The notes below the pieces were generated by a model. That model searched no databases. It was not told where the DNA came from and worked only from the letters and a program-made list of their open reading frames with translations. From NCBI GenBank assembly GCA_963735895.1, contig CAVTMQ010000002.1, positions 305,938-369,937 on the forward strand: a DNA stretch of 64,000 nucleotides. The letters run 5' to 3'. Within the stretch, counting starts at the first letter, position 1; every line of letters begins with the position of its first letter. The translations under genes were made by a program, and so were the position numbers. The stretch comes from an uncultured Acidobacteriaceae bacterium. GTDB lineage: Bacteria; Acidobacteriota; Terriglobia; Terriglobales; Acidobacteriaceae. Of this stretch, positions 49,783-52,057 are shown one piece after another.

Positions 49783-50373
49783 ATGGGCGCGAAGCTCCTT
49801 CTCGCCCTGGCTGTCAGTTTTGTTTCGCTTTCGTGCACAGCGCAAGTAGTGCCTGCGGTCGTTCGGCCTCGGCTAGCCCCGACAGTTGGCGTAGGAATGA
49901 ACTATTGGTCGGGTGATTGGGGAAGCGGGGACATCAACAGGTGGGGGCCTTCAGCCTGGGCCACCTTATCGATCTTTCATGACCTCAGTGTCATTGCGGA
50001 AGGACACTCCGCGTTCTTTGGTGGAAACCAAAATGCGTCCAATTTCAAATACTTCACGGGCGGAGGCGGCCTCATCTACACCTCGGGATACTGGGGCAGG
50101 TTTCAGCCCTTTGCGAAAGGCGAAGCCGGCTATGCAAGCCTGACGCACCCCTCGAATTTCACCGGCCATTATCACGATACAAGCAATATCTGGACGCTCG
50201 GGGGCGGCGTGGAATACCACACCTGGGGCCAGTGGTGGACGCGAGTGGAGTACTCCTATGATTTCTTTCCGGACTTTCACAGCAGCGTCACCAACCAGAA
50301 CCACACCCTGAATCCGCGAGGCTTCACTTTTGGAGAGACGTATCGTTTCGGTCCGTCAGGCTCCCGTTTCTGA
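49783..50373 (+). CDS. Small outer-membrane beta-barrel protein
   Basis: Signal peptide and amphipathic strands (PFAKGEAG, LGGGVEY, RVEYSY, TYRF). Confidence 0.82.
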   Translation: MGAKLLLALAVSFVSLSCTAQVVPAVVRPRLAPTVGVGMNYWSGDWGSGDINRWGPSAWATLSIFHDLSVIAEGHSAFFGGNQNASNFKYFTGGGGLIYTSGYWGRFQPFAKGEAGYASLTHPSNFTGHYHDTSNIWTLGGGVEYHTWGQWWTRVEYSYDFFPDFHSSVTNQNHTLNPRGFTFGETYRFGPSGSRF

Positions 50374-50456
50374 TCTAACCGGCGCTGCCTAAAAACCTTG
50401 TGTACAACGCAGCATGTCGCTGACCATTCACAAAATCAGCGCAAAATCCAGAGGAC

Positions 50457-50493
50457 ATAAGAAAACCCCGCACAAACAGCGGGGTTTTCTTAT
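50457..50493. terminator. Bidirectional intrinsic terminator
   Basis: Perfect 15-bp inverted repeat ATAAGAAAACCCCGC-N7-GCGGGGTTTTCTTAT. Confidence 0.85.
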
Positions 50494-50718
50494 CGGTAAA
50501 CTGTTGGGATTGGACTAAGGCCATCGCGCTGCCGCGAGTGCCCCCGCATTTTCGCTCTTGCTCTTCGCCGGAGCCCATTCATCCAAGTGCCAATTTCCTT
50601 AAGGAATCGACACCTTGCGATAAGCTGCAAAGGCTACGGTTGAAGGGAAAATGCCTGAGTGACCCGGCCGGTAAAGTCCTTTCCGCCGGGGCTAATCTGG
50701 GGTCTTGGGCGCGATGCC

Positions 50719-50769
50719 CTAGGCCTCAGTCACCTCACGTAAGAAACTACTGGAACAATCATTTTGCAT
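50719..50769 (-). CDS. 16-aa small ORF MQNDCSSSFLREVTEA behind a hyper-extended Shine-Dalgarno
   Basis: GAAAGGAGGTTGATCCAGCC-T-ATG; stop TAG at 50719-50721. Confidence 0.5.
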   Translation of the reverse strand: MQNDCSSSFLREVTEA

Positions 50770-50802
50770 AGGCTGGATCAACCTCCTTTCCCGTGTAGCT
50801 TC

Positions 50803-50831
50803 ACGCTAACGCGGAACCGGTGGCTCGTCAA
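50803..50831 (-). promoter_or_regulatory. Sigma70-type promoter driving the 50457-50797 transcript
   Basis: TTGACG (50831-50826) - 17 nt - TAGCGT (50808-50803). Confidence 0.65.
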
Positions 50832-50868
50832 GTCACAGCAATCTATCTGTTCGGATGGTGAAGAGCTT

Positions 50869-51153
50869 CTACAACCGTTCTTCCAACACCACGCTCACGC
50901 GATCGACGACATCCTTGCCGATCTGTTTGCGAATCTCTTCCTTCACCGGCAGTTTGTGCCTGCCGTCCCCCAAAGCCATGAACGAACTTTGGAACTGCAC
51001 GCTGTCTACCTTGCCGCGCACCTTCACCAGCCCGCGCGTTCCAAAAAATTCCGCAGACTCCGGCCACACAACATAGGTCCATCCACCCTTGTCAGGACTC
51101 TTCTCAAGGATGGCCGTGAATTGTTTGTTCAGTTTTCCACGCGCATTTGCCAT
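50869..51153 (-). CDS. DUF1905-domain protein
   Basis: KGGWTYV....[15 protein letters not shown]...[15 protein letters not shown]...IRK.IGK. Confidence 0.85.
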
Positions 51154-51172
51154 TGTCCACGCGAGTGCTCCG

Positions 51173-52057
51173 CTAAGCCAGAGCCAGGTTCATGTTGTCG
51201 ATGGCTTCGTCGATCTCCTGCGTGCTCTTGAAGCCAACGGTGGCGCAATCGATACCCGCGTGCTGAAACGCGAATCGCATCGCGGCCTGGCGATCTTCAT
51301 GCTTAGTGAAGGTCCCGTCGCCGCAGAGCTTCATGCTGATCACGCCCATGCCCTCGCTTTTGACCTGTTTCACGTGCGCCACAACCTCGGGAATGACGCT
51401 TGGATTGTTCGCGTCTTCCCCAACCGGTGCATCCATGCGCGTACCGTTGTGGTTCATGCGGATCATTGCTACTTCGAGGAACTTGTTTCCGGGCACTTGC
51501 CGCAGCGCCGGCAGACCGTGGACCGAAGCGCCTCGAGTCTTGATGATCTGCTTTGACTGGGCTTCGAGCATGCCGTCCTGCCATTGCTTCGTCTCCGAGA
51601 CCCAGTCGCCGGTGTGCTGCCAATGGAGCAACATGATGTCGAAGTACTCCGTTTGCGAAACTCGGCGCATCTCGTCAAACCGCTTCTGAGGATCAACTCC
51701 CTGATCAGTCGTCACCTTATTCATCAACTGGTAGCTGTCGCGCGGATACGGCTTCAACGCCTCGCCCAGCATCGCGGGCGTCATATACGACTCGGCAGTC
51801 TCGAAGAAACGAATTCCGTGGTCGTAAGCGTAAGCGATCAGCCGCGAAAACTCCTTCTGCCCCAGCGCCGCCTGCACGTGGCCGTTATTGCTGCCTGTGC
51901 CGAAGGCGAGCCGCGTCACTTTCATCCCGGAGTTTCCCAGTGTCACAATGTCAGTAGCTGTACGACGGGTGGCATGCAACGGCAGCGTGCCCACGCTGGC
52001 GGCAGCGCCAGCGACAATCGTGGTCTTCAGAAAATCGCGTCGATTCAACGGGCTCAT
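51173..52057 (-). CDS. Aldo/keto reductase with twin-arginine (Tat) signal
   Basis: NRRDFLK leader; [37 protein letters not shown]. Confidence 0.88.

Follow-up and report, generated by a model that had tools for sequence, protein, structure and literature searches.

The window, i.e. the whole analysed stretch of 64,000 nucleotides from an uncultured Acidobacteriaceae bacterium (source genome G000, 84.7% complete), carried a predicted small RNA gene of ~340 nt on the minus strand at positions 50455..50796. The gene was preceded by a predicted −35 box TTGACG (50826..50831) and, 17 nt further on, by a predicted −10 box TAGCGT (50803..50808). The TTGA was found 42-43 nt upstream of the first Shine-Dalgarno element in 74/87 homologues, and the −10 box appeared as TA...T in the alignment of congeners (genomes of the same genus). 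The boxes were separated by 17-18 nt in the homologues, and the DNA between them diverged. A strict consensus scan for promoters and terminators returned 0 sites, flagging neither the predicted boxes nor the predicted hairpin. As judged from its conservation, the ACAC with which the RNA began, equivalent to position 1 of the Rfam family Ms_IGR-5, was probably the transcript start.

The first element of the RNA was SD1 (50771..50791, bulge at 50781), the innermost bases of which, 50771-50774, belonged to a 5-nt spacer before AUG. It was followed by a 16-codon ORF (50719..50769) encoding MQNDCSSSFLREVTEA and ending in TAG, which was recognised by frame and stop statistics. Within the ORF lay a second element, SD2 (GUGAGGUGA, 50730..50738), whose GAGGUG core ended 9 nt short of the stop codon. 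The switch region (50709..50731) consisted of strand X, the last codons (50722-50731), and strand Y, the stop codon and following bases (50709-50721); either could pair with strand Z (50512..50529). Further downstream there were a conserved AAUCCCAA box (50504-50511), resembled by a box in the Ms_IGR-5 consensus, a CAG-N-NYACC linker complementary to SD2 (50495-50503), and a terminator-like hairpin with a 15-bp stem (50457..50494). All these elements were on the minus strand. Hairpins of differing sequence occupied the terminator position in the homologues; in the window the hairpin was probably common to the RNA gene and a convergent outer-membrane beta-barrel gene.

The relatives' RNA typically measured ~180 nt to the 3' linker, plus the terminator. 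In the window it was enlarged by a 115-nt hairpin expansion (50543..50657, minus strand), specific to G000, which was absent from genome G001 and most congeners and had no other copy in G000 or the fetched loci. Several congeners (loci L011, L015 and L018) had expansions of at least ~115 nt at the corresponding place of the 3' domain. A closing stem resembling CATTTTC/GAAAATG was common to the expansions of the window, L015 and L018, and their insides differed.

The genes neighbouring the RNA varied among loci. A gene for an aldo/keto reductase bearing a Tat signal (50869-52057, minus strand) lay upstream in the window and in 7/19 other congeneric loci with 1.5-kb flanks. A DUF1905 gene between this gene and the RNA was present in G000 and locus L005 only.

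Complementarity to the 16S rRNA tail

A reading of the sequence alone had reported a 20-nt match to the 16S rRNA 3' end on the plus strand. The 20-mer was found exactly at 50771-50790, and 19 of its 20 letters were matched with one insertion, in agreement with the reported complementarity of about 18-19 nt plus one extra base. The match itself was indeed on the plus strand; the functional strand was the minus one. An assembled 16S gene was not found in G000, and congeneric 16S genes were used for comparison. An Rfam-confirmed gene was present in 4/5 congeneric genomes searched, and all four lacked the extra base, ending in the standard tail plus CT.

SD1 formed 16 base pairs with the 16-nt free tail, arranged as 10 + 1-nt bulge + 6 and including one G-U pair, at −26.7 kcal/mol. 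No other site in G000 came within 2 edits of the 18-nt tail complement, and of the 9,104 GGAGG sites of that genome this one paired most strongly with the free tail. Hence, the match was beyond chance, and far longer than a normal Shine-Dalgarno sequence, as had been stated. The runner-up in G000 (−25.8 kcal/mol, contig C3 near 499113, minus strand) was not a copy of the small RNA. It stood at the start of a ~55-codon ORF, which may encode something like a small DNA-binding repressor.

The flanks were also correctly described as unlike rRNA: no rRNA sequence flanking the motif was found, and the Rfam scan gave no rRNA match in the window. No family matched in the window-wide scan at the gathering threshold, and an E-value scan of 50370-50900 gave weak matches alone, nearly all on the terminator hairpin. 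Neither tRNA nor tmRNA was detected in the window.

Two sets of loci were used for the conservation analysis. The order set (the order of the source genome) comprised 90 loci, of which 87 were parsed, L087-L089 having been removed by a filter; of the roughly 200 first-pattern matches, 70 were fetched. The GTDB sample comprised 120 loci from 2/64 parts scanned with a pattern of SD1, SD2 and stop codon, which did not demand a reading frame.

The extra base had been suspected to be a homopolymer error. It was present in all 20 aligned congeneric copies with varying identity, and in 75 of the 87 order loci, being missing in 12. As for the suggested check of reads for A or AA, contigs from two DNA runs (X1, possibly the source sample, and X4) and two RNA runs (X18 and X20) crossed it without a gap. 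The bulge was therefore a real and, as only 21/120 loci of the GTDB sample contained it, lineage-specific feature.

The homologues kept not only GGAGG, the pattern that would have spoken against the match, but GRTC(C) as well. The counted change within GRTCC was A to G, in 18/87 order loci, with a G-U pair retained. The base 5' of AAAGG was G in 118/120 GTDB loci, though it was not part of the search pattern. The spacer between SD1 and AUG measured 5 nt in 51/87 and 5-7 nt in 74/87 order loci. On these comparative grounds, the 20-nt match was considered a real and selected complement of the 16S 3' tail, and SD1 probably binds 30S subunits.

Reading frame, SD2 and folding of the 3' domain

The first start codon was in frame with GAG GTG in 86/87 order loci, the exception having an in-frame GTG. 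No in-frame stop codon preceded GAG GTG in any of the 87 loci, as against 82 and 69 loci in the other two frames. In the GTDB sample, the first start was in frame in 108/120 loci, 9 lacked a common start and 3 were out of frame; an in-frame stop occurred in a single locus, compared with 94 and 50 in the other frames. The stop codon was placed 9 nt after GAGGTG in 86/87 order loci, a spacing not imposed by the search; all three stop codons, TAG, TAA and TGA, were in use there. Only 3 of 2,179 long ORFs of G000 had GAGGTG at this distance. From these sequence statistics, the frame of 14-22 codons is under selection for translation.

When synonymous codons were allowed in the Glu-Val pattern, all of the 122 matches read GAG GTG (counted by eye), and the 123rd genome, G237, carried GAG GTG further on. 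Since no synonymous change was seen in GAG GTG, the comparison places the constraint on SD2 at the nucleotide level. The peptide was 14-20 aa long in the order loci and reached 22 aa in g65, one of the genera of the order. Its N-terminal two thirds varied in sequence and length, and its end was EV[T/A]EA or near it. The same bulged SD and a REVTEA ending were present in named Terracidiphilus records, and the source organism is probably a Terracidiphilus-like one within Acidobacteriaceae.

NGU codons made up 34.5% of the variable ORF part versus 3.2% in G000 genes. The bias held by residue, with 61% AGU among Ser codons (8% in G000), 79% UGU among Cys codons (23%) and 83% CGU among Arg codons (14%). 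It was also observed that the A/U-rich ORFs of the homologues, and of the window at 50739-50766 (minus strand), were biased to out-of-frame stop codons. As a speculation, the NGU bias might give a weak, 3-nt-periodic anti-SD pairing.

The earlier reading had advised examining downstream sORFs and structures and had named none; the conserved ORF and a structured 3' domain were found on the minus strand. Pairing of SD2 with the linker was supported by 97.3% of cells for 8 pairs in 41 sequences, compared with 23-53% when the strands were slid. Six of the eight pairs were invariant, one pair showed a two-sided change, and the shuffle control was modest, 12/500 shuffles scoring as high. For X-Z, 93.4% of cells were paired, with no two-sided changes. 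Cognate Y-Z duplexes had −18.2 kcal/mol against −13.1 kcal/mol for swapped ones (65 distinct sets, 0/2,000 permutations), a difference inflated by the kinship of the sequences.

Folding was performed for 83 of the 87 order RNAs. At full length, the SD2-linker helix reached at least 2 bp in 19/83 RNAs and 0.1 bp in the window RNA. X-Z and Y-Z each reached at least 4 bp in 35/83 RNAs when folding was unconstrained. With the 5' end and ORF held unpaired, Y-Z at this level rose from 35 to 50/83, and in the window it increased from 3.6 to 11.9 bp. A two-fold switch of the 3' domain is thus a plausible prediction of the folding model. A much larger middle domain with conserved motifs of its own, e.g. 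CCGGTGA...GGAT, was observed in loci L227-L248 (genera g65 and g72) and is possibly a separate structured module.

Occurrence and known relatives

With a 311-nt query, a single strong match (E no higher than 1e-21) was obtained in 22/24 other congeneric genomes, the two genomes with no match being 74% and 90% complete. A pattern of the 5' part only was matched in 123/151 genomes of the order, in single copy and with 0 reversed-control matches. The first pattern matched 202/301 order genomes (genome G311 counted once) with 2 reversed-control matches. Its absence from genera g65 (0/39) and g72 (0/14) proved to be an artefact of that pattern. The RNA was present in 12/12 fetched g65 regions and was found by the model in 14/16 g72 genomes, in both genera with a one-base variant of SD1. 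A looser phylum-wide pattern (71/151) was discarded as mostly noise with many control matches. In genomes G252 and G296, two identical matches each lay on different contigs and were probably assembly duplicates.

Extrapolation of the GTDB scan gave ~6,900 genome stretches, with ~4 expected by chance as estimated for even base use. The record titles were mostly Actinomycetota and Acidobacteriota, with single Ignavibacteria, Leptospira, Syntrophobacter and Sumerlaeota. Among viral contigs there was one match to the full pattern (L249); set against the ~6,900 GTDB stretches, it made the layout look chromosomal and old. R1, a model built from the order's loci that scores sequence only and has no structure term, matched 25/37 loci outside its training set, including Ms_IGR-5 members, most of these loci having been picked by a shared pattern. 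Twelve pattern matches, among them the Leptospira locus L147, were not confirmed by R1. Locus L160, on a contig labelled Ktedonobacteraceae, scored 127 bits with the order model, like a family member, and was probably mis-binned or transferred.

The relatives were represented in a peat RNA run by 99 contigs, which covered the conserved RNA parts only and had a summed depth of up to ~18,000; this is consistent with expression of the relatives' RNA. Contigs of RNA runs lay inside the predicted gene limits; they carry no strand, transcript ends or expression level. The empty flanks in run X19 provided no contrast, because flanks are not conserved.

The RNA resembled Ms_IGR-5 (RF02471, Actinobacteria sRNA) in the order of its motifs. 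Both had the ACAC start, an extended SD, GUGAGGUG with a stop codon three codons downstream at a helix base, an AAUYCC box, a CACC linker (ACC in the ordered set scored for the window) and a terminator. In the window RNA, by contrast, SD1 was bulged, the ORF was longer and rich in Ser and Cys, and the 3' domain was larger and could be expanded. RF02471 matched neither the window region (E up to 10) nor G000, the gathering threshold of 45 bits not being reached. Other acidobacterial loci scored 47.7, 43.8, 41.0, 33.8 and 31.2 bits, and 9/20 GTDB loci scanned matched, four actinobacterial ones at 95-98 bits. In the opposite direction, the order model matched the Streptomyces Ms_IGR-5 member L107 over positions 1-223 (E 7.8e-9). 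The window RNA is therefore a probable distant homologue of Ms_IGR-5 and was not counted as a member, because no RF02471 score was obtained for the window. Ms_IGR-5 is filed in Rfam as a non-coding sRNA; it is read here as ORF-bearing and double-SD.

According to the available part of bioRxiv 10.1101/2021.12.14.472595, IGR-5 of M. smegmatis is validated, uncharacterised and NAD-capped. In the available parts of PMC8079986, PMC10454040 and bioRxiv 10.1101/2022.01.24.477521, only expression was reported for Ms_IGR-5 or CC2171. Neither the ORF nor the pair of SD motifs of Ms_IGR-5 came up in the text consulted. A 3' extension of the E. coli 16S rRNA is the subject, as far as its accessible text goes, of bioRxiv 10.1101/2025.09.11.675593. 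A literature search covering few subscription papers yielded no functional study of Ms_IGR-5, no follow-up on rreB function and no account of this small RNA in Acidobacteria.

The second known kind of RNA with such a layout was rreB/rreR of Alphaproteobacteria, likewise a small stand-alone transcript with an RpoD-type promoter, an SD spanning the whole free tail, an ORF of 14-18 codons and a structured 3' part. The rreB RNA has a 17-nt SD, co-sediments with 30S and is weakly translated; loss of its start codon raised its half-life from 10 to 37 min, and its function was described as elusive (Hahn et al., PMC5711450). Like rre RNAs, the window RNA had at least 16 nt complementary to the 16S 3' end, though split 10 + 6, and was, by its predicted promoter and terminator, a stand-alone transcript with a 16-codon ORF. 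The rre match is unbroken over 16-17 nt and ends in a GUG start, whereas that of the window RNA was bulged at 50781 and its AUG followed GATCC by 5 nt. Moreover, the rreB ORF contains an internal anti-SD and, unlike that of the window RNA, lacks SD2 (0/26 rreB-type ORFs). GAGGTG at 9 nt before the stop was found in 0/116 complete ORFs obtained with the rreB primer motif, and the order model matched 0/12 rre-type loci.

CC2171 (RF01867, Caulobacter sRNA) was similar in having an rre-type SD and a short ORF at its start, and its 3' structure differed from that of the window RNA. It had no match in G000 at the 75-bit cut-off, the Caulobacter control being positive. Of 20 loci with the rreB primer motif, 19 matched CC2171, 9 of them above the cut-off. 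In rre/CC2171-type ORFs, G[AG]GGT stood at the window's stop distance in 15/90 and one codon closer in 13/90. Among loci L250-L369, rreB-type loci scored 39-50 bits against CC2171 and related loci up to 101, and by these scores rre and CC2171 look like one family; in some of the ORFs, GAG GT or GGG GT preceded the stop by two or three codons.

A third likeness concerned attenuator leader peptides and the model post-termination complexes described in the accessible text of PMC5737721, in which an SD lies shortly before the stop of a short ORF and is linked with alternative folds. In comparison with that text, the window SD2 was one codon further from the stop than in the model mRNA, and the window transcript had no downstream regulated gene. 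Taken together, the window RNA is a variant of a known, unexplained kind of RNA, and the present tests concerned the SD2 core, constant in its nucleotides and in its distance to the stop, the extra base, the helix-45 idea, which failed, and the relationship to Ms_IGR-5.

Proposed mechanism and alternatives

We proposed that the RNA is a stand-alone mini-mRNA operating as an RNA switch driven by the ribosome, its function not lying in the peptide, a reading to which we gave an even chance of being correct. By its sequence, SD1 would pair with all 16 free-tail bases with one bulge and a 5-nt spacer to AUG, and by analogy with rreB the 30S binding would be tight and initiation weak. The rreB data carry over to this step only, because rreB lacks SD2. 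The available part of PMC13009471 describes extended SD helices in an initiation complex, one base being flipped out of the helix. The frame of 14-22 codons would then be translated, as its conservation suggests. At rest, SD2 and the last codons are predicted to be hidden in a helix with the 3' part of the RNA, which a translating ribosome would unzip.

Once the stop codon is in the A site, SD2 would be separated from the P-site codon by 5 unpaired bases and could pair with the 16S tail. This spacing is equal to that of SD1 at initiation, and therefore a grip at start and at stop is proposed. The RNA would be held on the post-termination ribosome until splitting, and the 3' domain would flip to its second fold, exposing the AAUCCC box and the linker. 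In the portion of PMC5737721 available, an SD 9-14 nt before a stop made mRNA release 50-fold slower, splitting was not slowed, and the mRNA was proposed to leave quickly after splitting; therefore, the hold by SD2 may be brief. In the least certain step, the flip might set decay of the RNA or binding of a partner, so that the RNA would report or adjust the level of free, working ribosomes in the cell. No target or partner of the RNA was found. The invariance of SD2 could be fixed instead by internal pairing plus the peptide, as judged from the sequences, because 6/8 pairs were invariant and the shuffle control was modest. If the proposal is correct, the RNA would be a natural case of an SD acting at termination with nothing downstream in the transcript. 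Reading Ms_IGR-5 as a translated, double-SD mini-mRNA makes the question of rre-type function testable in Streptomyces and M. smegmatis.

A wider form of this reading, which we put forward tentatively, is that Ms_IGR-5, the acidobacterial RNA and the scattered members in other phyla are one old class and a dedicated ribosome gauge. It is equally no more than a possible, rather doubtful idea that such a gauge works by 30S loading on an oversized SD, one-round unzipping, a second grip by SD2 at the stop, with initiation-like spacing, and a flip to a fold exposing a signal box. Single-copy RNAs kept across distant phyla, such as tmRNA, 6S and SRP, usually serve housekeeping, and to our knowledge few of them still lack a function. 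If the gauge reading is true, the RNA would be a housekeeping device for translation feedback that was overlooked as the E. coli and Bacillus models do not match.

It is also conceivable, and in our view unlikely, that the RNA senses amino acids or decoding, its Ser/Cys-rich, NGU-biased codons slowing or stalling the ribosome under shortage and the stall position picking the 3' fold. Such an attenuator-like leader acting in trans would be mostly compatible with the switch and would differ in its input. The NGU excess (34.5% versus 3.2%), together with the enrichment of Ser AGU, Cys UGU and Arg CGU over G000, argues in its favour. However, the residue at NGU codons varied freely among S, C, G and R, pointing to a constraint on nucleotides, the transcript contained no downstream gene, and the neighbouring genes varied.

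Another function, distinctly unlikely, is that of a 30S sink or store, in which an abundant RNA would park small subunits through SD1 and SD2, translation being the release step. SD1 as the strongest 16S-tail site of G000, the co-sedimentation of rreB with 30S (PMC5711450) and the 99 contigs with a depth of up to ~18,000 in one peat RNA run, which is not a measure of level, would fit with it. A 20-fold overexpression of rreB nevertheless left growth unchanged, and ribosomes far outnumber rreB (PMC5711450); for a sink, moreover, the conserved stop position and the two folds would be needless. The earlier suggestion that the pairing traps 30S subunits was thus upheld in part: 30S binding is probable, and simple trapping is disfavoured, as the site opens a conserved in-frame ORF.

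The view that the peptide is the product, either as a Cys/Ser-rich small protein or as an EV[T/A]EA arrest peptide with the long SD keeping its synthesis low, was considered improbable. It would account for the strictly kept ORF, for the nearly invariant C-terminal EV[T/A]EA in the order and for the EV[A/T] common to Actinomycetota, the latter being partly imposed by the pattern. Against it, the N-terminal two thirds varied over a length of 14-22 aa, GAG GTG had no synonymous changes, the last two residues differed among phyla, and the synthetic RreB and RreR peptides were unstructured (PMC5711450).

A very improbable role is that of a chaperone or checkpoint of the 16S 3' end, invading helix 45 or binding pre-16S rRNA and linked to RsmA. 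The window match did extend 4 bases (AGCC, 50771-50774) into the 3' strand of h45, and the SD1 pairing would reach −36.2 kcal/mol with h45 open, a gain of 9.5 kcal/mol. These four bases were kept in only 29/87 order and 9/120 GTDB loci, the h45 hairpin alone was worth −16.3 kcal/mol, and in co-folding it stayed closed while SD1 paired with the free tail. The rsmA gene was 6.4 kb off in the window and ~7 kb in G001, but the other four congeners tested had it at ~52 kb, 12 kb or 460 kb or on a different contig, so its proximity was a coincidence, as the sequence-only reading had assumed. Helix-45 invasion, raised there as well, is unsupported, because the matching bases were poorly kept, h45 stayed closed and the rsmA distance was variable.

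Finally, it is barely credible that the motif is an anti-SD small RNA of the plus strand, a relic of rRNA or an artefact of priming, chimerism or assembly: the plus strand does look like the end of a 16S gene there and is similar to primer 1541R, yet no rRNA match occurred in the window, the promoter boxes, ORF and terminator were conserved on the minus strand, contigs spanned the motif, and the locus was present in 123/151 independent assemblies of the order.
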